Below, piece after piece: positions 39,697 through 56,626 of a stretch of 64,000 nucleotides of DNA. This DNA comes from an uncultured Candidatus Brevefilum sp. (GTDB taxonomy: Bacteria > Chloroflexota > Anaerolineae > Anaerolineales > Anaerolineaceae), in contig CAYPKT010000003.1 of the NCBI GenBank assembly GCA_964411385.1, forward strand, positions 137,302 to 201,301. The letters run 5' to 3'. The stretch's first letter is position 1, and every line of letters begins with the position of its first letter. The notes under the pieces were generated by a model. That model was not told the DNA's origin. It saw nothing but the letters and a program-made list of their open reading frames with translations, and ran no database searches. The translations under genes were made by a program, and so were the position numbers.

Positions 39697-40176
39697 TTAA
39701 AGATCATAAGTTGTCTTGATAAGGGTAAGAATTGAATAGAAGCCTTGGTTAATTATGTCGACAATTTCTTTGGCAACCATTTCTACAGTTACGTTGTCTC
39801 CTGCAAAAGGGTCGAGAATATCGAAAGAAGAGAAGCCCGCAGCTTCAGACAAGAGAAATACCCGGTTACGAACATCAGGGAATTCAAGTGAAATTGCTTC
39901 CTTATGGTTACTAGTCATGACGAGAATAAGATTAGCGTTATTCAATAAGTCGTAATTAACCATCCTTGATTTATGGGCATCTAAATTTAATCCAATAGAA
40001 CGGGCGCATTCGAGGGCTGATGGCATAACCGGGAGCCCATTTTCGGCCCAAGTTCCCGCACTTGAAATAAGAATTTCATCACGATAATGACGATTGACAA
40101 GTTCACAGGCAAAATATCCCGCTGCAAGGGGCGAGCGAAAACGATTTGCAGTACAAATGAATAAAATAGAAAACAT
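39697..40176 (-). CDS. Low-molecular-weight protein-tyrosine phosphatase
   Basis: P-loop ILFICTANRFRSP (CX5R-S) at the N-terminus and a downstream Asp in the DP loop. Confidence 0.85.
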   Translation of the reverse strand: MFSILFICTANRFRSPLAAGYFACELVNRHYRDEILISSAGTWAENGLPVMPSALECARSIGLNLDAHKSRMVNYDLLNNANLILVMTSNHKEAISLEFPDVRNRVFLLSEAAGFSSFDILDPFAGDNVTVEMVAKEIVDIINQGFYSILTLIKTTYDL

Positions 40177-40236
40177 CTGAAAACAATTAAAAATAATCCT
40201 CGATATGCGTATAAGAGCCTTATTGTTTATTAAACT

Positions 40237-41157
40237 TCACTGAAGCTTAGGATGATCGCGAGGGACAACAATCCAATCGCCGGGATATAAAACAAAATCT
40301 TCAGAAACATTATTGTAATGAGCAAGTTGTTCAAGAGATACTTCTAATTTTTCCGCTAAATAAGATATCTTTATATTTTCATCAACGACTTCATAAGGTT
40401 CAAAGACAGGCAAATCGGAAACATCTGTAAATTCTAAAGGAATAACAATTACCCAGTCGGCCCAAAGAATATCTAATAAATCGTAATTGATTGCTTTAAT
40501 TGCATCCACGGTAGTACCGTATTTTTCGGCAAAGTGAAGCAAGGTCTCTCCCTCCATTACGCGATGAATGATAAACTGGATTTCTCCGCCTATTGGCACG
40601 CCAAGCGAAAGCGATGGCCTTTGTGCTGTGGGTGTAGGGGGTATTTGTGTATTTGTGGGTTCGGGTGTAAAAGGTGTGATGACTGCTTGCGTGAATTTAT
40701 TACCTGGTTCTATAAGTGCTTTGTTTTCCTCTTGGGTAATTGTTTTTTCTAAATTGATTATTTGCCCAAGTGAATCTGATGGTGGCATGGTTTTACCGCT
40801 GGAAAAAAGCCATTTTTTACCTAACATGAGACTGGTGATTGCAATGATCATTATGAAGATTGCTGCAATTAAATTAAATATTGTCTTTTTTGGGAAAAGC
40901 CCGGCAGGGTTTTGAAAACGTATTTCCTTCGGCATTTTTTGCCTCGATTCCGTTTTGAAAACAGGGCATTCAACGTAATTCGGGCAAAGGCAATATGACT
41001 TTTGATGATCTAAAGACGGTGTGGTAATCGGGGTCACATGATGGCAACAGTTTCCACTTGAAGGATAAGATATTCTTGTTAAAGGATCATGCTTTAATCC
41101 AAGATGCGGGCATGGATCCAGAGTAACTTTTTGATTTTGCGTACTGATGGTTTCCAT
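40237..41157 (-). CDS. Membrane protein with a Cys-rich cytoplasmic N-terminus, one TM helix and two C-terminal LysM domains
   Basis: CPHLGLKHDP...NCCHH...CLCPNYVECPVF at the N-terminus, TM helix IFNLIAAIFIMIIAITSLML, and LysM-like repeats (GETLLHFAEKYGTTVDAIKAINY; LAEKLEVSLEQLAHYN). Confidence 0.75.
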   Translation of the reverse strand: METISTQNQKVTLDPCPHLGLKHDPLTRISYPSSGNCCHHVTPITTPSLDHQKSYCLCPNYVECPVFKTESRQKMPKEIRFQNPAGLFPKKTIFNLIAAIFIMIIAITSLMLGKKWLFSSGKTMPPSDSLGQIINLEKTITQEENKALIEPGNKFTQAVITPFTPEPTNTQIPPTPTAQRPSLSLGVPIGGEIQFIIHRVMEGETLLHFAEKYGTTVDAIKAINYDLLDILWADWVIVIPLEFTDVSDLPVFEPYEVVDENIKISYLAEKLEVSLEQLAHYNNVSEDFVLYPGDWIVVPRDHPKLQ

Positions 41158-41266
41158 TGATAAGTTTATTACGTAATTTACTCCGCGTTTAAATGTACCT
41201 TAAAATTAATGTACTTTGTGAATATAAACAATTCAATTACCTATTATTGATTTTATTTGTTCCATA

Positions 41267-43093
41267 CTATTCAAGATCGACATGTTGATCATCGAGATAA
41301 TAGCTATTCCCATACTTTTTTGGAGAATAATAATCATAACCACCATAATAAAAACCACGATTTTGTGGGATTCTGTTCATTACAACCCCAATTACATTGG
41401 CATGAATTCGCCTTAATTCTTCTAGGGGTGTTTTTACCGCTACAGCACGCGTTTTTCCTGGCCGAATGATATAGACCAACCCATCAATTTTTGTTGATAA
41501 AATTTGAGCATCTGTGACGATTGTTGGTGGGGTGTCGATAATGATGAAGTCAAACGAAGATTCAAGCTCACTCAAAATTCTGGTCATCCGATCGCTTGCC
41601 AATAGTTCTGCTGGGTTAGGAGGTAAGGACCCTGAAGTTATCACGGAGAGATCTGGCACCTTTTCTGATACTTGAATGGCAGAACTTAATTCAATTGGGA
41701 GCCGCATAAGGTCAGATAAGCCAATACGATTGGCAATCATCAACTGGTTGTGAATATTGGGTCTTCGCAAATCTGCATCTAACAAAAGGACACGGTTATT
41801 GCTTTGAGCTAAAACCACTGCCAGGTTGGTTGCTATCGTTGTTTTTCCTTCCTGGGGACCAGAACTGGTAACCAAAATTGTCTTTAACGGGCGGTCAACA
41901 CTAAAGAATTCTAAAGAAGTTCTTAAAGATCTGAAAGCTTCGGATACCGGTGAACGAGGTTGATTGATAACGTAAACAGGTGAATGCCCATTATTTTTTT
42001 GTGCTGATTTGCTTTTTATATCTGAGATAAAGCCGATGACTGGCAACTCAAGTTGTTCTTTAACTTCATCTGGTGTTTTGAGTGTGTCGTCAAAATATTC
42101 CACAAGGAATGCGATTCCGCCAGCCGAGAGAGCACCTACCGCGGCAAACAACAAGCCAGTCTGCATTGGTTTTGGTGAAATCGGGTTTTTTGGCACCCGG
42201 GCTGGCTCCACCTGGACAACCTTTGGGATACTTTGGACGCGCGCAAGATTTAGAGCTTCTAAACTGCTGATGCTTGTCAAATAAATTTGTTGGTAGATAT
42301 CTAATGTGCGTTGAATTTGTGCTACTTTACGGGTTGTTGTGTCGCCACGTTGGATGGGCTCTCCCATAACGGTGAGCTCGGTATTCAATTGCTGATAAAG
42401 AGATAGGATTGGCCTAATTTGGTTTAGCTCTGCTTCTAATGCCAGTCTTTGACGAGTTTGTTCATCCTCTGGTAAAAATTGGTTAATTTGAGTGATTGCA
42501 AATTCAAGAGATGTGACCTGGCTTTGCAATTGATTGATTTGTGTTTCAACCTGGGTTAGTTGTTCAGTGACCTGCGTTGTAGTAATTGTGTCAATTTCCT
42601 GTTGTAAGACATCAATTTGCGTTAAAGCATGGTCTGCCCGCTCCTGTAAATTTTGTTCGGTAGTGGTAAAACGAACGGATTGGAGGTCTTCATTTTGTTC
42701 AATTAAAATTTCCACCAGCTCATTAGCAATGAGCGCAGCTTTTTGCGGATCAGGATGCGTTACCGTTAATCGAACGAATTGTGTATCTCCAATTTGTGCG
42801 GCATTTGCTTGTCCTGAGTAAACTGCGAATCCTAATTGATCAGAGACTTGATCAAGCAAAGCTTCGGTAGATAGAAGCTCGGTGTATGTTGCAACCAGTT
42901 GTTGGTGATCGATGAAAGCATAATAATCAAAGCCGGTTGAGGCTGCACGTAATATTACAAAACGTGTGCTGGCTTGATATAACGGCGTTTCCTGGCTGTC
43001 TAAGTAATACCCAATACCACCTGCAACGAGAGTCGCTAAAATGATTAACCAAAGCCAACGTTTAAATATTTGAAAGATACTTTTTATGTCCAT
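41267..43093 (-). CDS. Polysaccharide co-polymerase / BY-kinase (Wzz domain plus tyrosine autokinase)
   Basis: Wzz-like N-terminus with a TM helix and a coiled periplasmic region. Walker A SSGPQEGKT, DADLRRP, Walker B IIIDTPP, and a C-terminal Tyr cluster FYYGGYDYYSPKKYGNSYY. I place the start at the ATG at 43093 (GGAGA SD upstream). Confidence 0.88.
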   Translation of the reverse strand: MDIKSIFQIFKRWLWLIILATLVAGGIGYYLDSQETPLYQASTRFVILRAASTGFDYYAFIDHQQLVATYTELLSTEALLDQVSDQLGFAVYSGQANAAQIGDTQFVRLTVTHPDPQKAALIANELVEILIEQNEDLQSVRFTTTEQNLQERADHALTQIDVLQQEIDTITTTQVTEQLTQVETQINQLQSQVTSLEFAITQINQFLPEDEQTRQRLALEAELNQIRPILSLYQQLNTELTVMGEPIQRGDTTTRKVAQIQRTLDIYQQIYLTSISSLEALNLARVQSIPKVVQVEPARVPKNPISPKPMQTGLLFAAVGALSAGGIAFLVEYFDDTLKTPDEVKEQLELPVIGFISDIKSKSAQKNNGHSPVYVINQPRSPVSEAFRSLRTSLEFFSVDRPLKTILVTSSGPQEGKTTIATNLAVVLAQSNNRVLLLDADLRRPNIHNQLMIANRIGLSDLMRLPIELSSAIQVSEKVPDLSVITSGSLPPNPAELLASDRMTRILSELESSFDFIIIDTPPTIVTDAQILSTKIDGLVYIIRPGKTRAVAVKTPLEELRRIHANVIGVVMNRIPQNRGFYYGGYDYYSPKKYGNSYYLDDQHVDLE

Positions 43094-43340
43094 ATAATTG
43101 TCTCCGAAGTGATGTTCAAATAGTGAACAAGCGGATGCTGACCGCAGGCAGGCGCACAATTGTTATTATTACGCGATAAAAATGGGTTAACTTTGGCGTT
43201 AATAGCCATTTGTGATTTTGATTAATAATTGACCCTATTTCCTAAAACAAGTAGATTTCAACTGAAAATTAAGAATACCATAAGTTGAATGTGATGGTAT
43301 AAAACATCCAACACAGCTCAAAACAGAAGGCCGCCTGTAA

Positions 43341-44594
43341 TTATTGACCTTCCATCCAGCGCAGGAGTTGCTGGTTGTCATCCTCCCTGTGGGCACTTTC
43401 AATCGCCCCTTTATGTTTTGCCAAAATCTGCCAGGTTGAACGCGCATAATTTTTAAATAAAAACTGTAAGCGAAGAAGGTAATTATAAATCAACGCTGGT
43501 GAATCGGGCTGCACATTGTAAAGACGTGCCATGATGTGCCTTGGAAGAAAAATCCTTTTCATTACGATACTAACTTTATCCCGCCATCGTGTGGCAGAAG
43601 CTAATCTCGCCAAGTCGGGGGTGACCATTACAGCCTCTTCAATAGGCTCCTGAAAGATCTGTGCCTTCGCCTGGATAATGACCTGCGGGTCACCAGGGCG
43701 CTCTAAGAGGCGTTCTAAGGCGTTTTGAGGCAGATGTGTGCCAAACAGGTCGTATAACAGGGTTAATGTCAGGTGTAGAACGCGATTTACTCGCCAATCA
43801 TGGGCTCGAGAAACAAGCATATCCCAATCGACCTGGTTGCCAATCCTTTCAAGGACAACATGGATATCGTAGAGTGCACCTAAACCAGCCCGCAAACGGT
43901 GTTGATAAGTGAAATGAATAGCCAGGTGTAGAACTAAATCCTCGTATGATAGGCTCAATGCCTCAATACTACCAATTTTTGAAGACAGGGCACGCTCCCA
44001 CAGCCCTTGCGGATCTACCTTGAAGCCCCAATCTGCCTCTACAATGGACCAGTGAATTTCAACATAAGGACCCCCAGGTTTGATAAAGGGGGGTATATGT
44101 TTGATATCGTTATTTTCGTCCTTTGTACTGAAATAAGCAGTTTGCTGGTACCCGAGTGCTTCCATGAGCTTGAGCGCCCTCGAAAGATGACTGCGGGGAA
44201 CGAGTAAATCGATATCGTTGAGAACTCGATCGCCGATGTTCGGATAAATGTTGTCCAAAAGATAAATCCCTTTGAGCCCAATCACTGGGACATTGGCGCC
44301 AACCAGATGGCTGATAATCCCTTCAGCATGATGCAGCAAGAGCATGTTGCGGGCTGTATTGCTGAGGTGGATGTTATGGAGACGATTGCTGATATCGGTT
44401 GGAATTGAAAAGGTGTCTGGGGGGGAGCACAGGCGCGAATAAAGCGCCATTGACAAGTTTTGCTTGGCAGCAATACCCAAGAAGGTGTCCCACTCTTCTT
44501 CTGAGAAATTTTGAATGCGGGCCAGGGCTCGTGCTGGAAAGGGACTTGCGTTGAGAACCTGGCAGAGCAGGTTAAGATGGTCTTGGGTGGTCAT
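43341..44594 (-). CDS. PF14907-like uncharacterised nucleotidyltransferase
   Basis: 417 aa. The pattern LKGIYL...GDRVLNDIDLLVP...LGY...IKHIPPF...VEIHW is typical of the NTP_transf_5 family. Confidence 0.65.
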   Translation of the reverse strand: MTTQDHLNLLCQVLNASPFPARALARIQNFSEEEWDTFLGIAAKQNLSMALYSRLCSPPDTFSIPTDISNRLHNIHLSNTARNMLLLHHAEGIISHLVGANVPVIGLKGIYLLDNIYPNIGDRVLNDIDLLVPRSHLSRALKLMEALGYQQTAYFSTKDENNDIKHIPPFIKPGGPYVEIHWSIVEADWGFKVDPQGLWERALSSKIGSIEALSLSYEDLVLHLAIHFTYQHRLRAGLGALYDIHVVLERIGNQVDWDMLVSRAHDWRVNRVLHLTLTLLYDLFGTHLPQNALERLLERPGDPQVIIQAKAQIFQEPIEEAVMVTPDLARLASATRWRDKVSIVMKRIFLPRHIMARLYNVQPDSPALIYNYLLRLQFLFKNYARSTWQILAKHKGAIESAHREDDNQQLLRWMEGQ

Positions 44595-44722
44595 AAAAAT
44601 TTTATACTAATATAAGATATTTAATATATCTTGGTGCTTCATATCAATTAATGATAAATTTTTCAAAATCACCGAGAATATTGGTGTGATAATCTGCAAT
44701 TGGATTTCAAATTAATAGTTTT

Positions 44723-47700
44723 CTATTTATTTGGACCACTGATAAAAAGCGGGAGAAAAATCCCAAATCCAGTAATTGTTGCATTTTCTTTGGGAATTAT
44801 TTCGATCGTTACCTTCGCCAGGTTAGAATCAAGGGACCCATCATTTGCAATGAAAGTAAATGAATCAGTGCCGATATAATTTCCAGTCGGTGTATAAACC
44901 CGTTCGGGCGAGCCTTGTTCGCCTGATAATAACCCGTATATTGGCTCATCGACAATTGTAAATGTAAATTCTGTATCGTCTGGATTGTTAAATAAATTGT
45001 TAGAACTTCTCAACAGCATATTACTGCTATCAGCCGTAAGAGTAATATTTATCGGTACTTCCATTCGAGTAGAAAGATCTTGGTCATGTGCGATGGGACG
45101 ATTTTTGGAAATGACTTCAAGGGTAACCGTAGCGATGTTTGAAGTTTTTGTACCATCAGAGATACTATAGGTAAAGCTATCTACCCCATAAAAACCATCA
45201 TTTGGCGTATAGTTGAATGAGCCATCTGATGAGAGATCAAGTGTGCCGTATTGAACATTGGCTGCCAAAGACGTGGTTAATGCAGCCTTGTTTGGGTTAG
45301 TATCGTTGTTTAACACGCCTGTTTCGACAGGAACAATTAATTCGGTATCTTCTAAAATTGAATAATGATCGTTTACGGCGGTTAAACTTAGAGCTATTCG
45401 CATAGCCGGATCACCAAATAGGAGGTAAGTATCAATTTGGTCAAGGTCTCGACCTGAATTCCACAGGGTAAGCAAACTATTTTGAATGGCAGTCCCTAAT
45501 TTGGGGCTGCCATGCACGAACACAGATTCCAAAAAGCCATAATTTAGCCGCTCATGACCGCGATTGGTACCCCAGCCAGTGGGTGACCAGCTGGCTGCTG
45601 CGCCTTTGCCCGGTGTACGGGTGATGACTTCAGCCAGAGAATCTCTGGTCGTTAACTGGTGTGGCCAGATATAATAGCCATCTTGGCAGGTAAATGAAAG
45701 CAAAATCGATAGTTTTTCATTGTCTGGTGCCAGCGAATTGATGTGATCGGTTTTAAAAAACACTGGGTTTTTTCCCCAGCCTCCATAATAACCGTGACCG
45801 AAATAGTTAACAAAAAGCGAACCCTGGTTAAAGCCATCTTTAATAGTTGCTGTGGCTTGGTCAAGATCTGAATGGTTTTTTTTCCAATACATCTTTTCCA
45901 AGGAATAGGGCTGTGCAGGATACAGCTGGTTTAAAATAGCGTTTAACATCGCTGCATAATTGCTGCTAGGGCTCGAATCATAATCGGTCACTGCTAAAAG
46001 GTGATGTTGCCAATCGCCAAGGGGTGGGTTCGTTTCATAGGCAATAATTTTAGCAATAAAAGCTGCAGCTTCCTCCGGGGTATTGACCGCTAAACGCCCT
46101 AAAAGCATATTCGGGAGTGTGCTTTCGGTAGAAAGGCTGACGTAACGGTTGTCTGCGGCTGTTTCGCCGATGTTAGGGTCTACATTGGCTAAAAAGGGCA
46201 GGATAAAGCTTGGTTTCCCCCAATTTAAATAGTTTTTTGGGTCATAATGACCGTCCCCCACCAGCAAAACATAGGATGGGGCAGGTTCAGCCCAGGATTC
46301 CAGGGTGTAAGCCAAAAAGTTTTGCAAAGCCAAAACATCAGTGATGCCATAACCAAATTCATCATAAATGTCTTGGATATCAACCAAAACCGTATCAAGC
46401 CCCGAACCCTGACGGTACTGACGCAAAACCTCTGCCTGCTCCAAGAAATCTGCATGAGATATGATGAGGTAATCCGCCCGGTTTGAGATCGCGCTTAAAT
46501 TAGAAGGCTTATCCAAAGTGATGCCCTCTATGCTACGAAACGTCGCAGGGGTGCCAGACCAATAATGTACTGTCCCTATGATTTCGTCTTCGAAAGATAC
46601 GGTAAAGGCTGGGCCAACTTCTTGAATATCGAAATTTTGAATCTGGACAGGTTGGTGTGGGTTACTAATATCATAAATCTCTGCATCACCGCTGGTAAAA
46701 CCTTCTAATTTATATTGCCAGGTTCCAGCTTGATGAAAATTGAAGGCGAGCTCATCGCCCACAATCTCAAAAGAGCGGTCATAATTAAACTCGACCCAAT
46801 CAATATAAAAGGTATCAATTGTAATGCCGTTGTCAGCGTGTTCTTGGATCGTAAGTGTATTTTCGCCGGCAACCAGAACCCCCTGGGGGATATCAACCTC
46901 TGCCAGGTGAAAGTTAACTCCATCCCAGCGGATGTTATCCTCGATCTGGACTCCATTAATAAAAAGGACGGCGTGGTGATCGGGGTTAACACTGATATCC
47001 TGTGTAATCCCCATTAATAGGACCCGGAGGTGGACGATTTCACTTTGGCGATTTTGTAAGGTAAAAGATAAATCCCAATTCCTATCTGGACTTACCCATT
47101 CGCTAAAAAAATGTTCATACTCTCCTGGCGCCCCAGAAGAAACATAATAAGTGTTTTTTTCTATATGATAGGTATTAACAAAAGAGGAAGGAACCGGCGA
47201 GGAGCCTTCCAAAGTACCGTCTCGGGCGCCAATCCGTAAACCAGATGTTTTCCCATAAGTGAGCCAATAGATATTATCTTTTGTATATTTGTTGTCGATG
47301 CTTTGACCGTAAAATAAGATTGATTTGTCGGGGTTGACGATAATAGCAACCTCTTCGCCCAGGTGAAATAGCTGTAAAGTGTCTGGGTTAAGGCTGTCAA
47401 TCGGCACTCCAGCATCAACCAATTGGCCTGCGGTGAGATGGTAAAAACCATCCTCTTGGATTGAGATTTTCCAAGCAGGATCTGGGAGTGACCAATGTAA
47501 AGAACGTTGTTCGGCGATGCCTCTTTCGAGGGATGAATTCAGTCCCCGCCAGGATTTAGCCACGTCATAATTTAACAAGCTGCTTTGAAAAATGCTTTCA
47601 TATATAGATGAATCGGGTTCGTAAGACCGCTGCAATTGGGATGAAGCGCCGGAGAAGCTGACTTCGACGTAAATATCTTCATAAATGGTGAGTTCATTCA

Positions 47701-48280
47701 AGTTGGGGGCCCATTGAAAGGGGTAGACCCCGATACTGACCAAGCGTTGTTTGCGCAGGGTGCCGTCGTTGACCACCTCGGCAAACTGGCCGGGGTAGGG
47801 GACGTCTGCACGGTAAACAGATGGGTCTTGTTCGTAGATGGTTGTAATCTCCTTCGGAATGGGTAACCCGTCGTTGAGCTCCGGATCTTCCCAGGTTACC
47901 ACCTCACGGCTTTGGGGGAGGATGGGTGCATCTAACTTGATGGTATGGGCTTTTCCGGGGCTAACATGGAGGTCAATGGACGCACCGAACGGGGCGCCGA
48001 TCGCCTGGGTAAAGAAGGGCAGCTGGGGTGCACCTGGATCGCCTGAAGTCGGCCACCCCGGTAACAAAATTTGCGTATAATCCCCTGAGTTTGTCGATAA
48101 CAATTCTTGGATCACCCGGTCGGCAGGAACGTTGAGTGTAAAACTTAACCCATAGCTATCGCTTGAATGCAGTGTGATCTCACCCTCATCAACCACGGCG
48201 CTAACAGCACTGCCGGGCGATGGTGTTATAAGGGTGATCAAAATACCTGTAGTGAGGAGAATGTTGATTATTTTTTTCAT
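44723..48280 (-). CDS. Secreted gingipain-like (peptidase C25 family) protein with two C-terminal cadherin/Ig-like modules and a short hydrophobic tail
   Basis: Signal peptide and a propeptide-like N-terminus. Catalytic-type motifs FVNYFGHGYYGGWG (His) and LLSFTCQDGYY (Cys). Two repeats of the type VLNNDTN...YTPNDGFYGVDSFTYSISDG. The tail is ITGFGIFLPLFISGPNK. Confidence 0.72.
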   Translation of the reverse strand: MKKIINILLTTGILITLITPSPGSAVSAVVDEGEITLHSSDSYGLSFTLNVPADRVIQELLSTNSGDYTQILLPGWPTSGDPGAPQLPFFTQAIGAPFGASIDLHVSPGKAHTIKLDAPILPQSREVVTWEDPELNDGLPIPKEITTIYEQDPSVYRADVPYPGQFAEVVNDGTLRKQRLVSIGVYPFQWAPNLNELTIYEDIYVEVSFSGASSQLQRSYEPDSSIYESIFQSSLLNYDVAKSWRGLNSSLERGIAEQRSLHWSLPDPAWKISIQEDGFYHLTAGQLVDAGVPIDSLNPDTLQLFHLGEEVAIIVNPDKSILFYGQSIDNKYTKDNIYWLTYGKTSGLRIGARDGTLEGSSPVPSSFVNTYHIEKNTYYVSSGAPGEYEHFFSEWVSPDRNWDLSFTLQNRQSEIVHLRVLLMGITQDISVNPDHHAVLFINGVQIEDNIRWDGVNFHLAEVDIPQGVLVAGENTLTIQEHADNGITIDTFYIDWVEFNYDRSFEIVGDELAFNFHQAGTWQYKLEGFTSGDAEIYDISNPHQPVQIQNFDIQEVGPAFTVSFEDEIIGTVHYWSGTPATFRSIEGITLDKPSNLSAISNRADYLIISHADFLEQAEVLRQYRQGSGLDTVLVDIQDIYDEFGYGITDVLALQNFLAYTLESWAEPAPSYVLLVGDGHYDPKNYLNWGKPSFILPFLANVDPNIGETAADNRYVSLSTESTLPNMLLGRLAVNTPEEAAAFIAKIIAYETNPPLGDWQHHLLAVTDYDSSPSSNYAAMLNAILNQLYPAQPYSLEKMYWKKNHSDLDQATATIKDGFNQGSLFVNYFGHGYYGGWGKNPVFFKTDHINSLAPDNEKLSILLSFTCQDGYYIWPHQLTTRDSLAEVITRTPGKGAAASWSPTGWGTNRGHERLNYGFLESVFVHGSPKLGTAIQNSLLTLWNSGRDLDQIDTYLLFGDPAMRIALSLTAVNDHYSILEDTELIVPVETGVLNNDTNPNKAALTTSLAANVQYGTLDLSSDGSFNYTPNDGFYGVDSFTYSISDGTKTSNIATVTLEVISKNRPIAHDQDLSTRMEVPINITLTADSSNMLLRSSNNLFNNPDDTEFTFTIVDEPIYGLLSGEQGSPERVYTPTGNYIGTDSFTFIANDGSLDSNLAKVTIEIIPKENATITGFGIFLPLFISGPNK

Positions 48281-48320
48281 TTAATTGACTATCCTGGTTT
48301 ATTATTTTTTACCCTAAAAC

Positions 48321-49187
48321 CTAAGCATTTTCAATGGTTTCTACCAGGTTAGACCCCTGCTGATAGGCGAGCGTGAAGAATGGTACATGGGTTGTCAAGC
48401 CTTCTAAATTTTCTAAAATATGATTGATTAATTCTGAGCGATAATAAGGAATGAAGGCTGTTTGTAAAATTTTTAAAACCCCATTGGCTGCGGTAAGCGC
48501 GGATAAGGTTTGCGGAGAGGACCTGTCGAGGAAGAACAATTTTTTCAAGGGTACACCTAAAGGGGAGCAGCGATCTGCCCGCACATGCCAGGGCGTGCCG
48601 TAGATCCAAAACTGTCCATCCTGGTAACGGAGGATAACCTGGTCCTCACCTAAAACGGTGATCCCCGGTTTGTCGGCTAAATCATCGGCGATGGTTGATT
48701 TCCCTGCACCGGATGGACCAAAAAAGACATAGCCTGAGCCAGCAAGGGCGACACCTGAGGCGTGCAAGATGAGGTCACCGTAATTTGCCAGGTAATTTGA
48801 AAACAAAACTATGTCTAAATATTGCAGCGGGTAAAAATCAAGCTCTCCTGGAGTATTTTGATCAATAAATACCTCTCCACATTGAAAGTTAGGGTCGATC
48901 ACCACCCAGCGTTTTGGCAAAATTTCAGACAGGAAAAACACATAATTCCCAGCGGGCTCTTTCCATAGTTCCCAAAGTGGGTTTTTAACAATCAGGTGAT
49001 TAGCCAATGGGCTTTTGAACACATGCTCAGATAATAATAGCCTTATAGGCATTGGACGATCAGCTAATAACCCCACTGGTAAATCTTCAGAAAGAAGAAA
49101 ACCCTGGTAAGATGACGGAAGCCAGGTGGGTTGTGTTGAACTCCTGGCTTCCAGAATGAGTTGTGAACCTCCGATAGATAAAATCAC
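48321..49187 (-). CDS. HPr-kinase-related (HprK C-terminal-domain-like) P-loop kinase
   Basis: LILHASGVALAGSGYVFFGPSGAGKSTIADDL matches the HprK-like Walker A region. The start is a GTG at 49187 and is uncertain. Confidence 0.65.
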   Translation of the reverse strand: MILSIGGSQLILEARSSTQPTWLPSSYQGFLLSEDLPVGLLADRPMPIRLLLSEHVFKSPLANHLIVKNPLWELWKEPAGNYVFFLSEILPKRWVVIDPNFQCGEVFIDQNTPGELDFYPLQYLDIVLFSNYLANYGDLILHASGVALAGSGYVFFGPSGAGKSTIADDLADKPGITVLGEDQVILRYQDGQFWIYGTPWHVRADRCSPLGVPLKKLFFLDRSSPQTLSALTAANGVLKILQTAFIPYYRSELINHILENLEGLTTHVPFFTLAYQQGSNLVETIENA

Positions 49188-49281
49188 AAAGAAATTTTCG
49201 TTGATTACAAAAACGAAATTTATTGGTTAATTCGTGTAAAAATATTAACCTATTAATAACGAAGGTAAGGATCATCCCCGG

Positions 49282-49467
49282 TTACGGGTGTGCACCTTCA
49301 GGACAGCCAACATGTTGATCATAACAAGCAATAGTCCATCCAGATGAGCCGGGAATTTCTTCTGCGGGGTATAAATTTGGGCTGGTATGGCAAACACCTA
49401 AGATAGCGCTTTTATAGGCAAGCTCTACTTTTTTAACGGTTGGCGCTGTGTATGGCTTTTTATTCAT
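49282..49467 (-). CDS. Candidate RiPP precursor peptide (61 aa, 3 Cys)
   Basis: MNKKPYTAPTVKKVELAYKSAILGVCHTSPNLYPAEEIPGSSGWTIACYDQHVGCPEGAHP. SD AGGAGA lies 9 nt upstream of the ATG at 49467. This start overlaps the stop of the radical SAM gene by 8 nt. Confidence 0.6.
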   Translation of the reverse strand: MNKKPYTAPTVKKVELAYKSAILGVCHTSPNLYPAEEIPGSSGWTIACYDQHVGCPEGAHP

Positions 49468-50572: not shown

Positions 50573-50579
50573 AAGGTAT

Positions 50580-50870: not shown

Positions 50871-50879
50871 ATTGACCTC

Positions 50880-51428
50880 CTAAGATAAGTATTTACAAAA
50901 ACCTGGTACACATTTTAAAGGACGGTTGGTTAACCTAAGGTGATTATAACGGTTGAGTTGATGTCTGAGGCTGAAAACCATCCACAGAGAAAGCAACCGC
51001 ATGGATGAACGACTCATGCTGAAGTGTTCGCCAGTGCGCTCAAAAGACGCTAAGCGTCCATAAATAGCCTCAAGTGAAATCCATCCGTCAGCTTGAATAG
51101 AATTGTCAGCTTGCAGGAGAAACCTATGGCCAGATTCGTGTTGGCGTATTCGAATCACCCGATGAAGGACCATGCGGCCATGTTTATCAGCGAAGAAAAC
51201 CACATCACCAACCCGGATTGGGCCACCTGCAAGTGGAGTAATTAACAACATATCTCCCTGCCTAATGATCGGGACCATACTGTCCCCCGTGGCAAGCAGC
51301 CTGACAGCTTTACCGGAACGCAAACCCTCCTGGCATAAGTATGTGAAAACGTCAGGCGAGGGGGAGAACTTCTCTAGTAGAAATGGTTGGTTTGGGTTAC
51401 CTGGTCGAGTAGAAGGCATAACAATCAC
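50880..51428 (-). CDS. S26B (Sec11/SipW-type, Ser-His) signal-peptidase-like protein lacking an N-terminal TM helix
   Basis: ATGDSMVPIIRQGDMLLI, VGDVVFF, MVLHRVI and LLQADNS parallel the SGSMEP / GD / THRI / GDNN boxes of SipW-type enzymes. The start is either the GTG at 51428 or the ATG at 51419. Confidence 0.65.
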   Translation of the reverse strand: MIVMPSTRPGNPNQPFLLEKFSPSPDVFTYLCQEGLRSGKAVRLLATGDSMVPIIRQGDMLLITPLAGGPIRVGDVVFFADKHGRMVLHRVIRIRQHESGHRFLLQADNSIQADGWISLEAIYGRLASFERTGEHFSMSRSSMRLLSLWMVFSLRHQLNRYNHLRLTNRPLKCVPGFCKYLS

Positions 51429-51463
51429 AATACCGTGGAGAATTAATCACTTGAATAGGAAGT

Positions 51464-51511: not shown

Positions 51512-52720
51512 CTAAGGTCGAGCTGCGGAGACCGGGCCAAACAATTCAGGCGTGTAGCTGGTATCGGAGGGAACGTCCTCGATCCAGTAGAAATAGGTCA
51601 GGCCGAGCTCAGCTGTGGTATCGAGGTAAGCGTAGTTGGCGCCGAAGGGGTTACCAGGGTTCGAATCGCCGACAATGATTTTACCGTTGATTTTTTCCTT
51701 AACACCGAACTCCATCTCAGAGCGATAAACGTTGAAGCCCAGGTGGTTGACTTCGGTAGCGGTGACCCAATTAAGTTGAATCCCGCCAGAGACGCCTTCA
51801 GCCTGGAGGTCGAGCATAATCACCGGGGTGATATCTTCGTTAGTGATGGCAGCGTATACACAATAGCAGTTATTTGTTTGCTCGGCAGTATACACCAGGT
51901 TATTTGAAAAGTCGGTCCCAATTGGAACGGTTGAGGGGCATTGCCCTGACGCAGGCTTATCGATAAAACCCAACAGGGAGACGGTGTATTCCCGTTCGAC
52001 TGGGTCGCCAGGCGTAGTGATGTTATCTACACATGTAAAATATTGTGTGTCACCTGGTTTGGTAATATTGACCCTGTCTGCACAGCCATTGCGGTTGGGA
52101 CCAGTATCTCCAGATACGTTTGGATAAGCTGAGCCACCCGGCCAATTGGGAGAGCTTGGGCCATATCTGCAAGGACTTTGGTTGTTCGTCGTCTCATCCA
52201 GGTTAAAGGTATAGACGAAATCCATCGTAGTTGGAGCATCCACCACATATGGTAGGTCACAAGCTAAACCGCTGATTGTAGCGGTGAGATCTACATACTC
52301 AAATGGATTATTGGGTGTAGAAATCGGGTTGTTAAAATGACAAAACGTGCCCACGTTAAAGGGAGTATTCAACGCGGGAGCATCGCCGATCCCTGTGCGT
52401 CCGAGGAAACCAAAACCACTTTTATTGCCAAAGGTATCTGATGAACCATAGCGTACCTGGTTCCAGTCAAAAGTTACGCGATTTTGAGTGTAAAGGTGAT
52501 TATTAGATCCGGAGGTAGAAGTAGTTTTGTAAGTCGGGTTGTCGTAATCATTTGAAGTAGCAGCTGGCCCGGTTGCCCACGTATTTCCGGTGGCTCCTCC
52601 GCCGCTATCAATTAACCCCCACACGCCATCCACACTGTTCATCGTAAAGGCTTGGACGACGCCTGTCAAGGTCAACGCTGCCATTAGCAGGCCAAAAATT
52701 AAAAGTATTTTCTTTTTCAT
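51512..52720 (-). CDS. Secreted Cys-rich protein, FCHFNN (THxN / choice-of-anchor-K-like) N-domain plus FN3-like C-domain, paralog A
   Basis: Signal peptide MKKKILLIFGLLMAALTLTGVVQA|FT. Motifs NQVRYGS...GFGFLG...GDAPALNTPFNVGTFCHFNNPI, and C-terminal LNWVTATEVNHLGFNVYR...YFYWIEDV. The ATG at 52720 has a 6-nt spacer from GGAG; an alternative ATG is at 52726. Confidence 0.75.
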   Translation of the reverse strand: MKKKILLIFGLLMAALTLTGVVQAFTMNSVDGVWGLIDSGGGATGNTWATGPAATSNDYDNPTYKTTSTSGSNNHLYTQNRVTFDWNQVRYGSSDTFGNKSGFGFLGRTGIGDAPALNTPFNVGTFCHFNNPISTPNNPFEYVDLTATISGLACDLPYVVDAPTTMDFVYTFNLDETTNNQSPCRYGPSSPNWPGGSAYPNVSGDTGPNRNGCADRVNITKPGDTQYFTCVDNITTPGDPVEREYTVSLLGFIDKPASGQCPSTVPIGTDFSNNLVYTAEQTNNCYCVYAAITNEDITPVIMLDLQAEGVSGGIQLNWVTATEVNHLGFNVYRSEMEFGVKEKINGKIIVGDSNPGNPFGANYAYLDTTAELGLTYFYWIEDVPSDTSYTPELFGPVSAARP

Positions 52721-53005
52721 CACCATCTCCTTAATTTAATTATCATAAATTGATAAATATTTCCCTTGTTTTAATAATTTACCCATCTTAAAAATTTGCT
52801 CTTTTGAGCTGAACTTATTAAAGTATAACGAAATAAAAAATAATTGTCAATATTTATTTTCTATTTTAAACGGTTTTCCTAATTTAAAAACAAATATCAT
52901 TAAATTACATTAAGAAAGTTTTGAAATAAATTTAAATACATGAATAACACAAATTGATTGCGACCCCTACAGCGGTGGTTTTGCGGTGCTCCTTAAGATA
53001 TCCTG

Positions 53006-53800
53006 TTACCTGATGGGTAATATGACGCAAGGATCGGGCTTTCCCGTTTCAGCTTGTGCACCGCAAAACCCAAAGTATTCATCACGGCTACCGCCAAATT
53101 GATTAGTGTTGATAAACTCCCACATAAAGGTGCCGCTGGTGTATGGTGTGGTCCAATTGCCTTGAGCACTTAATTCATCATAATAAGTTGTCGTAAATTC
53201 GTATTGGACACCACCTATTTTTCCGACCCCGATCAATTGAGAGGCGTTATTTGTAATTTTAACTTCACCTATCTTGAAAGTTCCATCAGGATCCTGAAAC
53301 CACACTGCCCAATCCCCGATCCAGAGTGTTTGTGGCGTGGCAGTTGGTTTAGGTGGGGGTGTGGAGGTTGGCTTCAACCCCGCAGGCTTGCTTTGGGTAG
53401 GGTCAGGTAAACTTGGCTGGGTGGAGGTGGGCACGCTGGTGGATGTTCTGCCAGGGTTGCCAGGCAGAGTTGTTGAACCAGCCTGGGGGGGCAAACCGGT
53501 CAGGTTGGGCGTAAAATTTACGTCTGGATGGGCACTCGTCGGGTTGAAACCGGAGCTTGAGTGATCAGCCCCAGGCGAACTTGCGTCCTCAGTTGGGCGG
53601 ACGGGTGCAAAAGGATCTAGCCCTACAAAGAACGAGGTCGGGGTTGGGCTGGGTTGCACCTCAGAATGGGTGGCGACTGCCCAGTCACCAGTGAAACCCT
53701 GGTTTGTTATCGATTTATTTTCAGCGCGGACATACCAAACGGTGGAGGCGATCAACGTTATGGTTAAGATGCTCAATAAGGTTATTGAATTTCGTCTCAT
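53006..53800 (-). CDS. Membrane-anchored protein with a Pro/Thr/Ser-rich linker and a conserved C-terminal globular domain, paralog A
   Basis: N-terminal TM helix ITLLSILTITLIASTVWYV, a low-complexity PT-rich segment, and C-terminus WIGDWAVWFQDPDGTF...FGFCGAQAETGKPDPCVILP. Paralog of 55832-56626. Confidence 0.7.
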   Translation of the reverse strand: MRRNSITLLSILTITLIASTVWYVRAENKSITNQGFTGDWAVATHSEVQPSPTPTSFFVGLDPFAPVRPTEDASSPGADHSSSGFNPTSAHPDVNFTPNLTGLPPQAGSTTLPGNPGRTSTSVPTSTQPSLPDPTQSKPAGLKPTSTPPPKPTATPQTLWIGDWAVWFQDPDGTFKIGEVKITNNASQLIGVGKIGGVQYEFTTTYYDELSAQGNWTTPYTSGTFMWEFINTNQFGGSRDEYFGFCGAQAETGKPDPCVILPIR

Positions 53801-53830
53801 AATAATTTAATTATAAGCGCTTTAGCTAAA

Positions 53831-53972
53831 AGAGAATAGTGAGTGGTGAATAGGAATTAGGGAATAGGAAGTAGGGATTAGGAAGGAGGAAGTAGGAAAT
53901 AGAGAATAGGAAATAGGAATTGGGAATTAGGGATTAGAGATTAGGAAGGAGGAAGTAGGGATTAGGGATTAG
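53831..53972. repeat. Heptanucleotide tandem array GRAWTAG, about 19 units (array A)
   Basis: Read by eye: tgaatag gaattag ggaatag gaagtag ggattag gaaggag gaagtag gaaatag ... ggattag ggattag. Confidence 0.9.
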
Positions 53973-54046
53973 ATCAGACTGTCATCTTTAGGTCGATTTT
54001 CATCAAAGGGGTAGTACCAGATGATGTAGGCGATCAACCCGAGCAG
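53969..54046 (-). pseudogene. 3'-terminal relic of a VanZ-like gene (duplication junction)
   Basis: 78 nt nearly identical to 56830-56907, the last ~25 codons plus stop of the intact VanZ-like gene. Similarity stops abruptly after GAGCAG. Confidence 0.8.
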
Positions 54047-54061
54047 ATCGCTTAACTCGCG

Positions 54062-54148
54062 TTACCAAAGCTCAAAAACTTCAGGCGAAGGTGCGGGTTT
54101 CATTGCAATAAGGGGCTGAGATGGGTTACTTGGTTGGTTAGAAGGCAT
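54062..54148 (-). pseudogene. 5'-terminal relic of the S26B-like peptidase gene (duplication junction)
   Basis: Encodes MPSNQPSNPSQPLIAMKPAPSPEVFELW*, versus MPSTRPGNPNQPFLLEKFSPSPDVFTYL of the intact gene. The upstream leader is also homologous to 51420-51511. Confidence 0.75.
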
Positions 54149-54193
54149 GATGGTCACGATGCTATGGTGAAATAATCCCATGTTGAGGGCAAC

Positions 54194-54226
54194 CTGCTGC
54201 GATAATCATTACGATCATCGCAGCAG
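54194..54226 (-). other. Conserved stem-loop after the secreted-protein stop codon (copy B)
   Basis: CTGCTGCGAT / ATCGCAGCAG, a 10-bp stem. The loop sequence differs from copy A. Confidence 0.55.
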
Positions 54227-54241
54227 TTGGTATCCTGTGAT

Positions 54242-55540
54242 CTAAGGTCGAGCTACGGAGACCGGGCCAAACAACTCAGGCGTGTAGCTGGTGTCGGAGG
54301 GAACGTCCTCCACCCAGTAGAAATAGGTTACGCCGGGTTCAGCTGTGGTATCGAGGTAAGCATAGTTGGCACCGAAGGGGTTACCGGGGTTTGAATCGCC
54401 AACAACGATTTTATTGTTGATTTTTTCCTTGACACCGAACTCCATCTCAGAGCGGTAAACGTTGAAGCCCAGATGGTTGACTTCGGTGGCGGTGACCCAG
54501 GTAAGTTGAATACCCGTTGAGACGCCCTCAGCAGCGAAGTCGAGCATAACCACCGGGGTGATATCTTCTTTAGTGATAGCAGCGTATGCACAATAGCAGT
54601 TATTGGTTTGTTCGGCGGTATAAACCAAGTTGTTTGAAAAGTCGGTTCCAATTGGAACGGCTGCAGGGCATTCCCCTGACGCAGGCTTATTGATAAAGCC
54701 CATCAGGGAGACGGTGTATTCGCGTGTAATTATATTAAGAGGATCGGCGTTATCCACACATGTAAAATATTGTGTGTCACCCGGTTTGGTAATATTGACC
54801 CTATCTGCACAGCCATTGTAATTTAATTGACCAGGGGCAGGCTGAGGGTTATTATAAGCTTCCTGCCCCGACGTGCAATAACTGCCACCATTAGCAGGCC
54901 AATTCGTGGATGAAGGCCCAAATGGACAGGCATGATAAACAGTGACAAGACTAGTTCTACATTTACAATCTCCTGTGCCCCATTCCCACGGCCAACATAA
55001 ACCTTGATTATTCGACGTCTCGGTCAGATTAAAACGATAATCGAAAGTCATTTCAGCTTGTGATGGGTCTGCCAAGATAAAAGGGTGTTCGCATTCGATA
55101 CCGGTGATTTTAACCTTAAGGTCAACCCAGTCCAAAGGGGCATTAGCACTAATTTCATTGTTGAAATGACAAAACTGGCCCACGTTGAAAGGGATATTCA
55201 ACGCAGGGGCATCGCCGATGTTTTGGTGCCCAAGGAAACCAAAGCCGCTTTTTGAGCCAAAGGTTGATGTTGAACCATAGCGTACCTGGTTCCAGTCATA
55301 TAGGACTTGGTTTTGGGTGGTAATTCGAGCAGCAACACTGTCTGTGGAATGTTGTGGAACATTAAAATCACCTCCAGAGAGAGGCCCACTTGCCCAAATT
55401 TGCCCAGTAGCGCCAGAATCTGTTCCGTTGATTTTATCCCATACACCGTCCACGTTGGCCATAGTAAAAGCCTGGACGACGCCGGTTATGGTTAAGGCGA
55501 GAAAAAATAAACCGAGAATTATAAATACCTTATTCTTCAT
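54242..55540 (-). CDS. Secreted Cys-rich FCHFNN protein, paralog B (carries an extra Cys-rich insertion)
   Basis: Signal peptide MKNKVFIILGLFFLALTITGVVQA|FT and motif FNVGQFCHFNNEI. There is a ~30-aa insertion LCWPWEWGTGDCKCRTSLVTVYHAC. The C-terminal half is close to 90 percent identical to paralog A. An alternative ATG is at 55546. Confidence 0.75.
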   Translation of the reverse strand: MKNKVFIILGLFFLALTITGVVQAFTMANVDGVWDKINGTDSGATGQIWASGPLSGGDFNVPQHSTDSVAARITTQNQVLYDWNQVRYGSTSTFGSKSGFGFLGHQNIGDAPALNIPFNVGQFCHFNNEISANAPLDWVDLKVKITGIECEHPFILADPSQAEMTFDYRFNLTETSNNQGLCWPWEWGTGDCKCRTSLVTVYHACPFGPSSTNWPANGGSYCTSGQEAYNNPQPAPGQLNYNGCADRVNITKPGDTQYFTCVDNADPLNIITREYTVSLMGFINKPASGECPAAVPIGTDFSNNLVYTAEQTNNCYCAYAAITKEDITPVVMLDFAAEGVSTGIQLTWVTATEVNHLGFNVYRSEMEFGVKEKINNKIVVGDSNPGNPFGANYAYLDTTAEPGVTYFYWVEDVPSDTSYTPELFGPVSVARP

Positions 55541-55831
55541 TTCCATCTCCTTAAATTAATCGTTTAAATTGTTCAATAAATATAATTGTTAAATAAGCTC
55601 CCTTTTATTTTGATTTACTAAACTAACCAGCTATTTATTGAGTATAAATGAGAATAATTCTTATGTCAAACATTTTTTGGGCGCAAATCAAAGAAAAATA
55701 TCTGCATTGTTTATCAAGAATATTTCAGGTTAATGCTATAGCGTAAGGGACAAATATCAACTGATGAAAAAAACAAACTATGTATCACTAGGTTAATGGT
55801 TGAACCCTTTGCGAAATTTCTACATATCGTG

Positions 55832-56626
55832 TTATCTTAGCGGTAATATGACGCAAGGGTCAGGCTTTCCAGATTTTTCTCTTGTGCCGCAAAACCCAAA
55901 GTATTCATCGTGGCTTCCGCCAAATTGGTTGGCGTTGATGAACTTCCAACGGAAATAGCCACTGGTAGCGGGTGTAGTCCAATAACCTTCGGCTTTCTCT
56001 TCGTCAAACCCTAAAATATCTAATTCGTATTGAACGCCGCCAATTTTACCAATGCCAATTAATTGAAGTGCATTAAATGTGATCTTTATCTTACCAGCTA
56101 TGAAAGTCTCATCAGGATGTTGGAACCAAACGGTCCACTCTCCTACCCAGGGAGCTTGAGCTATTTTAGTTTGAGTAGGTAGTGGGGTAAGCGTGGAGTA
56201 AGTGCCTGTAGGTTTGTTTTGGGTAGGACCCGGTAAGACCGGCTGGGTGGAGGTGGGCACGCTGGCAGGTGTTTTGCCTGGGTTGCCGGGCTGAGCAGTT
56301 GTGCCAAGTTGGTGGGGCAGGTCAGTCAGGTTGGGCGTAAAATTTACGTCTGGCTGGTCACCTAGCGAGTCAGGAGCGGGGTTTGAAAGATTGTCGCTGG
56401 ACGAACCTGAATCTTGTGTTGGGCGGACGGGTGCAAAGGGGTCTAACCCTGCAAAGAACGAAGTCGGGGTTGGGCTGGGTTCCGCCTGTGAATGGATGGT
56501 GACAGCCCAGTCAACTGTGAAACCCTGTTCGCCCCGTGATTTGTTTTCTGCGTACCCAAACCAAAAAGTGGAGATAATCATTACCGTGGTTAGGATAGTT
56601 AAAAGGATAATGGAGTTGCGTTTCAT
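55832..56626 (-). CDS. Membrane-anchored PT-linker protein, paralog B
   Basis: 264 aa with the same architecture and length as 53006-53800. C-terminus WVGEWTVWFQHPDETF...FGFCGTREKSGKPDPCVILP. Confidence 0.7.
   Translation of the reverse strand: MKRNSIILLTILTTVMIISTFWFGYAENKSRGEQGFTVDWAVTIHSQAEPSPTPTSFFAGLDPFAPVRPTQDSGSSSDNLSNPAPDSLGDQPDVNFTPNLTDLPHQLGTTAQPGNPGKTPASVPTSTQPVLPGPTQNKPTGTYSTLTPLPTQTKIAQAPWVGEWTVWFQHPDETFIAGKIKITFNALQLIGIGKIGGVQYELDILGFDEEKAEGYWTTPATSGYFRWKFINANQFGGSHDEYFGFCGTREKSGKPDPCVILPLR

Follow-up and report, generated by a model that had tools for sequence, protein, structure and literature searches.

Linear polyphosphorylated peptides (LPPs) are made by the LppA/K/B/S/D/N clusters of Bacillota, which reside in capsule loci and have been stated to be restricted to that phylum (Popov et al., Nat Commun 2026; PMC13381572). 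In these clusters LppK puts several phosphates on Ser3 of the core peptide, and leader cleavage by LppS requires presentation by a RiPP (a peptide made by the ribosome and modified after translation) recognition element (RRE) of a leader with the consensus YxxPxVLxHQxIxFETxxS (PMC13381572). The supplement labels LppS as TIGR02228 and LppN as NTP_transf_5 (PF14907), and lists under 'SSN cluster 3' a small, unanalysed set of peptidases whose hosts are Chloroflexi, Acidobacteria, delta-proteobacteria and candidate phyla; the main text mentions neither radical SAM, SPASM nor C25 proteins, nor Chloroflexota (PMC13381572). Here we analyse a stretch of 64,000 nucleotides (hereafter the window) from an uncultured Candidatus Brevefilum sp. 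(Chloroflexota, Anaerolineaceae; GenBank assembly GCA_964411385.1, contig CAYPKT010000003.1, positions 137,302 to 201,301), which represents contig 3 of a 2.4 Mb assembly with 98% completeness. Our subject is a group of three genes in this window, which encode an HprK-fold kinase-like protein, a C25 cysteine peptidase and a PF14907 nucleotidyltransferase, together with the peptide-modification genes that precede them.

On the minus strand and in the direction of transcription, the gene for the HprK-fold protein is followed after 40 nt by the C25 gene and after another 128 nt by the PF14907 gene; the open reading frame (ORF) coordinates and both gaps are exactly those given in a first-pass annotation of the sequence. 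Directly upstream on the same strand lie genes for a SipW-type peptidase, a PqqD protein, a radical S-adenosylmethionine (SAM)/SPASM enzyme and a 61-codon precursor (Table 1). We put the probability at roughly 0.7 that this co-directional string, whose downstream half consists of the three genes for the kinase, C25 and PF14907 proteins, encodes a radical-SAM pathway related to that of the LPPs, with C25 as a partner. The first-pass annotation had sought the nearest known system among lasso peptide clusters and 'HPr-rel-A' neighbourhoods. Its premise that HprK-like and PF14907 proteins act as lasso tailoring enzymes agrees with the paeninodin-type clusters in PMC13381572, but the nearest system is instead the LPP pathway, which combines a signal peptidase I (SpI)-like peptidase, an RRE, an HprK-like kinase and an NTP_transf_5 protein in capsule loci.

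Locus counts were drawn from 65 species-representative loci. The related loci come almost entirely from Anaerolineaceae metagenome-assembled genomes (MAGs) of anaerobic digesters and bioreactors, and one same-genus genome carries the label Brevefilum sp. Since the gene string is kept in more than 50 loci at 36–55% amino-acid identity, it is not a chance arrangement. Seven same-genus loci share the order secreted protein, peptidase, PqqD, radical SAM, precursor, kinase, C25 (~40–45% identity). Among loci of the Anaerolineae type, radical SAM and PqqD genes precede the kinase in 44 of 44, the precursor has the radical SAM/SPASM gene as its immediate upstream neighbour in 44 of 44, and the C25 gene directly follows the kinase in 44 of 45; a PF14907 gene lies within 10 kb, on any side or strand, in 16 of the 27 well-covered loci. 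In other phyla, radical SAM and PqqD genes precede the kinase in 8 of 9 loci, C25 follows it in 0 of 8, and PF14907 is found within the same distance in 2 of 4 well-covered loci.

The phyletic profile within the genus points the same way. Of 25 genus genomes, one and the same set of 7 holds orthologues of the kinase, the full-length C25 protein and the PF14907 protein together, and C25 is present in all seven genomes with the kinase and in none of the 18 without it. Synteny and phyletic profile thus bear out the link between C25 and the peptide cassette that had been read from the window alone. The pairing also recurs in an unrelated metagenome contig of 70% GC, where a C25 gene (25–29% identical) follows the kinase beside a precursor of another, -GS-ending type, and it is therefore not confined to one lineage.

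The PF14907 protein (181 bits against a cut-off of 31.2) has one orthologue in each of the seven kinase-bearing genus genomes and is also found in two fragmentary assemblies. Its gene lies upstream of the kinase, downstream of it or, in two genus genomes, ~15 kb away: the nucleotidyltransferase is co-inherited with the cassette, and its position within the locus is mobile. The described bracketing of C25 by the kinase and PF14907 genes accordingly stands for the window genome and not as a general trait; the conserved feature is the adjacency of kinase and C25. In one same-genus genome (L018, contig G019:C8, ~11700–16200), C25 matches appear in two pieces and PF14907 matches in three beside an intact kinase, which suggests that the accessory genes there are frameshifted or decaying.

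The C25 protein matches Peptidase_C25 (PF01364) with an E-value of 5.9e-73 (246.7 bits against a cut-off of 23). It begins with what looks, by eye, like a Sec-type signal (MKKIINILLTTGILITLITPSPGSAVSA) and continues through a C25 propeptide-like, a CBM-like, the catalytic and two Big_9/cadherin-like domains to a C-terminal tail that is short and hydrophobic (GIFLPLFISGPNK). Both catalytic residues, His (NYFGH829G) and Cys (FTC865QDG), are conserved without exception in 19 orthologues. PorU (NF033707) is the best curated sequence model, below its cut-off (249 versus 420 bits). The AlphaFold2 (AF2) model (mean predicted local distance difference test score (pLDDT) 74) finds latent PorU (6za2) as its best PDB match (E 1.4e-32, 1099 aligned columns); for the gingipains RgpB and Kgp the E-value is no better than 1e-14, and their alignments are limited to the catalytic and pro-domains. 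Template modelling (TM) scores against PorU are low (0.36–0.39), as expected for a multi-domain model, and the evidence lies in the end-to-end alignment rather than in a rigid superposition. TIGR04183, the cargo domain of the type IX secretion system (T9SS), had no match in the genome, and a control search likewise gave none in any reference genome.

The C25 protein ends in an extreme C-terminal motif, [IVLFGM][FY]LP[LIV][IVLF] plus 1–7 residues (44723–44765), which recurs in 16 of 18 C25 orthologues and in six other ORFs (≥150 aa) of the genome. Seven ORFs carry it within their last 14 residues, where 0.21 would be expected (200 random draws gave at most 2), and these C-terminal instances make up 7 of only 16 occurrences over all ORFs of at least 150 aa. 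The bearers whose N-termini were read mostly start with a hydrophobic, signal-like segment, and one of them (C11:64052–65767) has a beta-rich domain of the type in the secreted protein at 51512–52726 immediately ahead of the motif. The motif has the look of a C-terminal sorting signal of an undescribed kind. The ~100-aa domain at the C-terminus of the secreted proteins was itself considered as a C25-specific sorting signal and set aside: it occurs, more weakly, in most C25-less genus genomes, which leaves the idea unsupported at this sensitivity.

Exporter genes are nearly always missing from Anaerolineae-type loci. No ORF of at least 100 aa in the 64-kb window contains the ATP-binding cassette (ABC) signature motif LSGG[QE], and an ABC gene is nearby in only 2 Anaerolineae-type loci; several other-phylum and Methanosarcina cassettes include a pump. 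This lack, taken with the intact, secreted, PorU-like C25 fixed directly after the kinase, leads us to regard C25 as probably a functional partner of the cassette in Anaerolineae that acts extracellularly.

It is unlikely, though worth serious consideration, that C25 is instead only a neighbour: a surface protease of an exopolysaccharide island that hitch-hikes in a mobile locus and has no substrate or pathway in common with the cassette. GC content is 0.43–0.49 over the cassette and surface-gene block (42000–60000) and 0.36–0.40 at 14–40 kb, and only 7 of 25 genus genomes possess the block, with a mutual identity of only ~40%, which is consistent with a surface island that is exchanged horizontally or diversifies fast; raised GC and patchiness are also what an island inherited en bloc would show. 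C25 paralogues of ~30% identity exist in same-order genomes without a kinase match (G031, G032 and G039), most non-Anaerolineae cassettes have no C25, and C25 is a secreted protein whereas the machinery for the peptide resides in the cytoplasm. A passive neighbour would nevertheless hardly be held in strict same-strand adjacency in 44 of 45 loci, with a median of ~100 nt between matched segments and down to 36–42% identity, while the peptidase and PF14907 genes shift position within the same loci. Nor would it be expected to reappear beside the kinase in the 70% GC contig, with its different precursor type and divergent C25.

The presumed substrate of the pathway is the 61-aa precursor, which carries a YxxPxV leader motif, three cysteines (Cys26, Cys48 and Cys55) and the C-terminus ...EGAHP. 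Its gene is preceded by AAGGAG, and its ATG overlaps the end of the radical SAM gene by 8 nt. We aligned 57 sequences (the window precursor and 56 homologues; 49 of the Anaerolineae type and 8 of the other type), which are gap-free from the leader Tyr, numbered 0, to the first Cys. Invariant or near-invariant positions are Y0, P3, V8, L10, L17 and C20, corresponding to Tyr6, Pro9, Val14, Leu16, Leu23 and Cys26 of the window precursor; the leader consensus beyond YxxPxV reads KKVxLxxKNAILGxC[HN][ST]S. Among Anaerolineae-type sequences, position 18 is Gly, Ala, Ser or Thr in 48 of 49, and position 23, which is Ser29 of the window precursor and lies three residues past the invariant Cys26, holds Ser in 45 sequences and Thr in the other 4; most of these precursors have two more cysteines in their variable C-terminal part. 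The other type has acidic positions 13–14, Lys at 21 and a C-terminal Ser in 7 of 8 sequences (six ending in -GS). The lack of this C-terminal Ser in the window precursor is thus usual for its clade, which retains an internal Ser. The first-pass annotation rightly noted its absence; as an obstacle to phosphorylation the point falls away, given that all 49 Anaerolineae homologues have Ser or Thr at the Ser29 position and that LPP kinases use the internal Ser3.

Leader position 13 was also examined as a gingipain-type cleavage site tied to C25, and rejected, as the pattern tracks clade and not C25. Lys occupies it in 42 of 49 Anaerolineae precursors and Glu or Asp in 7 of 8 others; Lys is absent from the C25-linked loci L048, L051, L061 and L069, and the 70% GC C25-linked locus is of the Glu type.

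The radical SAM/SPASM enzyme combines a CX3CX2C motif (CNLNCVHC) with a C-terminal Cys-rich, SPASM-type motif (C..G....C ... CLTCTASGLCAQC) and aligns into this C-terminal region with peptide maturase models such as PapB and the mycofactocin maturase, all below cut-off. The PqqD protein, whose gene starts 10 nt downstream of the peptidase gene, finds weak PDB matches in TbiB1, LppB (9x8z) and PbaB1 (9x90). The SipW-like peptidase scores 47.8 bits with TIGR02228, just short of the 51.85 cut-off, and has no hydrophobic N-terminus or membrane anchor. In a BLASTP comparison with the LPP-paper supplement, it matched 'SSN cluster 3' best (E 1e-18, 31–33% identity), followed by LppS-type sequences (1e-13) and SipW (1e-8), and the alignment columns of its Ser50, His88 and Asp107 are identical in 10 of 10 aligned proteins.

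These precursors bear on a second alternative, which we consider quite improbable, namely that the HprK-like and PF14907 proteins act on a polysaccharide, a lipid-linked precursor or a surface protein, and that the radical SAM, PqqD and precursor genes are a separate and simpler module of sactipeptide or ranthipeptide type, interleaved by chance. Sugar-nucleotide and polysaccharide genes are abundant in the locus, the PF14907 gene can lie ~15 kb from the kinase, and in published work no effect of LppN on the LPP peptide was detectable (PMC13381572). Published LppK, however, phosphorylates a peptide (PMC13381572), the kinase gene directly follows the precursor in every locus seen, including those without polysaccharide genes, and the precursors retain a conserved Ser/Thr in the Anaerolineae type and a C-terminal Ser in the other type. 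Fusions of radical SAM and ScmC-like proteins exist as well. In a contig of Brevefilum sp. KA23 (L015, 14611–19999), a second peptide cassette comes right after the first and encodes a 656-aa fusion of a radical SAM/SPASM with a ScmC/HprK-like protein, a second radical SAM enzyme, a methyltransferase, a PqqD protein, a second SipW-like peptidase and a third radical SAM enzyme; open frames of the same size class (664 aa) with the same kinase-like match are found at G022:C21 and G022:C86. The occurrence of such a fusion in a same-genus MAG argues that radical SAM enzyme and kinase act in one pathway.

The kinase-like protein has the Walker A motif GPSGAGKST, and its precomputed Pfam family is PF27840 (ScmC). 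It falls below the cut-offs of the curated models HprK_rel_B (29 of 200 bits), ScmC (27 of 125) and HprK_rel_A (20 of 200). Thirty family members scored against the curated HprK/ScmC models likewise give weak matches: the ScmC model is matched by 20, all weakly, and TIGR00679, the model of genuine HprK, is touched by 4 (best E 8e-4). The family comprises 8732 clusters (50% identity) at E ≤ 1e-3, 2180 at 1e-10 and 56 at 1e-30. Sequence-only PDB searches with the kinase profile or its C-terminal half returned generic P-loop matches, with HprK/P at E ~0.5, so that a fold comparison was needed; the best 50 PDB fold matches of the AF2 model (pLDDT 89.7) are all phosphoenolpyruvate carboxykinases (PEPCK) or HPr kinase/phosphorylases. 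Family-invariant residues include H142, GxxGxGKST (157–165), E181-D182, R187 and W200-H201, a pattern that presumably corresponds to the catalytic His, P-loop and Asp of HprK/P. PF07475 (Hpr_kinase_C) has no match anywhere in the genome, the window kinase included, and the single HPr gene (PTS-HPr, E 1.2e-29) lies on another contig (C23:21238–21480); the protein is therefore not the HPr kinase of this organism, in agreement with the first-pass annotation. That it would be a real HPr(Ser) kinase/phosphorylase in control of carbon metabolism, as its HprK/PEPCK fold and a genome with one HPr and no canonical HprK might suggest, is contradicted by these results and by the presence of its gene in only 7 of 25 genus genomes, each time within a peptide cassette, and is extremely improbable.

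RNA evidence comes from Logan contigs of digester metatranscriptomes. They cover 49285–49471 and 49266–49431 at 100% identity, essentially the precursor gene, as well as parts of the PqqD and peptidase genes, and one secreted-protein gene. The match to the 186-nt precursor gene is almost exact in two runs that belong to one study and partial in a third, taken from a different study, which would fit a precursor RNA of greater abundance or stability than the remainder of the string. A consensus scan detected no convincing terminator in the 40-nt or 128-nt gap, no promoter-like site in the latter and one weak terminator-like site (44765–44750) at the 3' end of the C25 gene. An attenuator or terminator hairpin between precursor and kinase (49180–49290) was considered and rejected, as the region folds no better than shuffled sequences (z = −0.5). 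A single transcription unit is plausible from spacing and synteny.

On these grounds we propose a pathway in which the PqqD protein would bind the YxxPxV leader of the precursor and the radical SAM/SPASM enzyme would cross-link Cys48 and Cys55, and perhaps Cys26. The HprK-fold protein would then phosphorylate a serine, for which Ser29 is the best candidate because a Ser or Thr is kept there throughout the Anaerolineae-type homologues. With the leader presented by the RRE, the anchor-less SipW-type peptidase may remove it, possibly by a cut after Cys26; this site is proposed because the residue at −3 is nearly always small (small-x-small rule) and because Ser29 would become core residue 3, as in LppA. 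Cleavage at Cys26 competes with a role of this invariant residue in cross-linking. The PF14907 enzyme would finally decorate the phosphate, probably with a sugar or nucleotide from the surrounding polysaccharide locus. For C25, we envisage either extracellular processing of the peptide product or a PorU-like cut of surface proteins, which might be joined to an acceptor supplied by the cassette and the polysaccharide locus.

Several points weigh against this proposal. The product chemistry (phosphorylation, thioethers, cleavage site and PF14907 reaction) is suggested by analogy with LPPs and phosphorylated lasso peptides, and LppN was inactive in the published heterologous system (PMC13381572). 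The kinase is distant from all curated HprK-related models (at most 29 bits against cut-offs of 125–200), and the window RRE is no nearer to LppB than to lasso B1 proteins in the PDB search. The 44 of 45 adjacencies are not 44 independent events, because the Anaerolineae loci are phylogenetically related. Most of the non-Anaerolineae cassettes sampled lack C25, which is for this reason an accessory and does not belong to the core chemistry; without an exporter, it is also hard to see how a peptide made in the cytoplasm would reach a secreted protease. None of the RNA-derived contigs covered either gap or any of the three genes for the kinase, C25 and PF14907 proteins, although with contigs a lack of coverage means little.

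A more speculative extension, which we regard as a long shot, is that the peptide is the acceptor of a sortase-like system in bacteria without type IX secretion rather than an antibiotic-type natural product. PorU joins cargo to an amino-acid-bearing sugar of A-lipopolysaccharide (A-LPS), which offers a parallel. The cross-linked peptide would be tied via its phospho-serine to an exopolysaccharide sugar by the kinase and the PF14907 enzyme, the SipW-like peptidase would remove the leader and free an N-terminal amine, and the PorU-like C25 would cleave secreted proteins encoded nearby in their C-terminal sorting region and attach them to this amine. If true, surface proteins would be covalently bound to the slime layer via a ribosomal peptide linker.

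The cassette is embedded in surface-related genes (Table 1). Of 27 Anaerolineae loci with good coverage, 17 have a surface module ahead of the cassette, whereas no other-phylum locus has one; the Wzc-like exopolysaccharide control block recurs in at least 12 related loci, and sugar-nucleotide and priming-transferase genes occupy 57–62 kb of the window.

Table 1 Features of the window and further ORFs of the same genome that end in the C-terminal motif of the C25 protein
Feature	Position	Strand	Basis or remark
Putative low-molecular-weight phosphotyrosine phosphatase	39697-40176	-	C-X5-R motif; LMWPc label at matching L086 position
Exopolysaccharide control genes, downstream of cassette	39697..43159	-	
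Wzc-like tyrosine autokinase	41267-43159	-	306-aa protein also in downstream block
PF14907 (NTP_transf_5) nucleotidyltransferase, 417 aa	43341..44594	-	Pfam E 4e-53
AT-rich spacer between C25 and PF14907 genes, 128 nt	44595..44722	-	Direct reading
Secreted PorU-like C25 cysteine peptidase, 1185 aa	44723..48280	-	Pfam, NCBIfam, AF2 fold match
Gap between kinase and C25 genes, 40 nt	48281-48320	-	
HprK/PEPCK-fold P-loop protein (PF27840 ScmC), 288 aa, predicted peptide Ser kinase	48321..49187	-	
Three-Cys precursor, 61 aa, MNKKPYTAPTVKKVELAYKSAILGVCHTSPNLYPAEEIPGSSGWTIACYDQHVGCPEGAHP	49282..49467	-	
Radical SAM/SPASM maturase, 385 aa	49460..50617	-	Pfam Radical_SAM E 4e-22
PqqD-family RRE, 96 aa	50580..50870	-	Pfam PqqD E 3.7e-14
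SipW/archaeal-type signal-peptidase-like S24/S26 protein, 182 aa, predicted cytoplasmic leader peptidase (LppS-like)	50880..51428	-	
Surface module, tandemly duplicated	51512..56626	-	Pairs of secreted and membrane-anchored proteins
Secreted choice-of-anchor-K proteins	51512-52726, 54242-55546	-	~100-aa C-terminal beta-rich domain
Membrane-anchored proteins, 264 aa, one per choice-of-anchor-K copy	53006-53800, 55832-56626	-	
Other ORFs with the C-terminal motif	C4:71292-76865, C11:64052-65767, C11:71904-72503, C21:271-774, C26:14325-15068, C2:60405-61706		

Outside Anaerolineae, cassettes were found in Desulfomonilales, KSB1, Nitrospirota and Desulfobacterales, among others, with the order PF14907, PqqD, radical SAM, precursor, kinase and S24 peptidase (sometimes GNAT-fused), in some loci with an ABC exporter. 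Methanosarcina baikalica (L090, 8243–15358) encodes a PqqD protein, a radical SAM enzyme, a precursor ending in ...IINS, a ScmC-like protein, an S24 peptidase, an ABC_membrane/ABC_tran pump and an NTP_transf_5 protein, so that this archaeon has all genes of the LPP set and a radical SAM gene in addition; its kinase is named 'HPr kinase/phosphorylase' in the database source, which is probably wrong. A scan of metagenome contigs with a distant-kinase profile added 8 loci, mostly weak. In one unrelated bacterium (L079, 8799–10967), a fusion of a C13 (legumain-family) peptidase with a periplasmic-binding domain lies convergent to the cassette S24 gene. C13 peptidases belong to MEROPS clan CD, like C25, and this neighbour may be coincidental.

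LPPs were described in 2026 as a Bacillota-restricted class without a known biological role. The window locus joins the same enzyme set to radical-SAM chemistry, in a variant that spans several bacterial phyla and a methanogen. Its near-obligate pairing with a PorU-like protease in Anaerolineae hints at cell-surface or matrix construction rather than antibiosis and opens the question of what PorU-type enzymes do outside type IX secretion. A matrix role would be of practical interest because such Anaerolineae are abundant filament formers in anaerobic digesters.

Compared with LPP clusters, the locus shares an anchor-less SipW/archaeal-type leader peptidase beside a discrete PqqD RRE, an HprK-like kinase and an NTP_transf_5 (PF14907) protein (both at family level), the YxxPxV leader (LPP leaders start with (K/E)KxYxxPxV), a capsule or exopolysaccharide setting and a patchy distribution. 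It differs in that its peptidase groups with 'SSN cluster 3' of the LPP paper, that the leader lacks the LxHQxIxFETxxS remainder and that the MsbA-type pump (TIGR02203) is almost always absent from the Anaerolineae form, which has the PorU-like C25 instead. LPPs have no class-defining cyclising enzyme, whereas the window encodes a radical SAM/SPASM enzyme and a Cys-containing core; its product is for this reason probably not linear. While LPPs have been described as confined to Bacillota, members of the window type come from Chloroflexota, Desulfobacterota, Nitrospirota, KSB1, Actinomycetota (Thermoleophilia) and Methanosarcina.

The SynChlorMet (SCM) cassette (ScmC/D/E/F) likewise groups an HprK-like ScmC-family protein, a PqqD-like protein and radical SAM/SPASM enzymes around a small peptide, and we know of no functional characterisation of it. 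The window proteins miss all four of its curated models widely (27.1, 30.6, 60.2 and 79.1 bits for ScmC, ScmD, ScmE and ScmF against cut-offs of 125, 100, 400 and 400); SCM has two radical SAM enzymes against one here, and the window adds the SpI-like peptidase, PF14907 and C25. The paeninodin (PadeK) and pseudomycoidin (PsmK/PsmN) lasso clusters resemble the locus in their HprK-like Ser kinase, PF14907-type transferase and PqqD RRE for a YxxP leader. Unlike these, the window shows no lasso cyclase or B2 protease among the ORFs scanned at 41–64 kb and no C-terminal Ser, and the first reading of the radical SAM/SPASM enzyme as their replacement holds. Sactipeptide and ranthipeptide clusters are similar in architecture, with a radical SAM/SPASM enzyme, an RRE and a short three-Cys precursor whose gene overlaps the maturase end; the window adds a kinase, a nucleotidyltransferase and a signal-peptidase-type leader peptidase, and the curated maturase models stay below cut-off.

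With PorU, the C25 protein shares the catalytic domain with its His/Cys dyad, a similar length, a whole-length model alignment (Foldseek) and an N-terminal signal peptide. It differs by its Big_9/cadherin-like domains and short hydrophobic tail in place of a T9SS C-terminal domain, and by its setting in a Chloroflexota host beside a peptide-modification cassette; to our knowledge, Chloroflexota have no T9SS. Among the papers covered by a full-text literature search, none contained both 'HprK' and 'SPASM' and none contained 'Peptidase_C25'. We class the locus with the LPP kind of pathway, as a radical-SAM variant that is architecturally related to SynChlorMet, and as distinct from SCM proper, lasso peptide clusters, genuine HprK and PorU proper.

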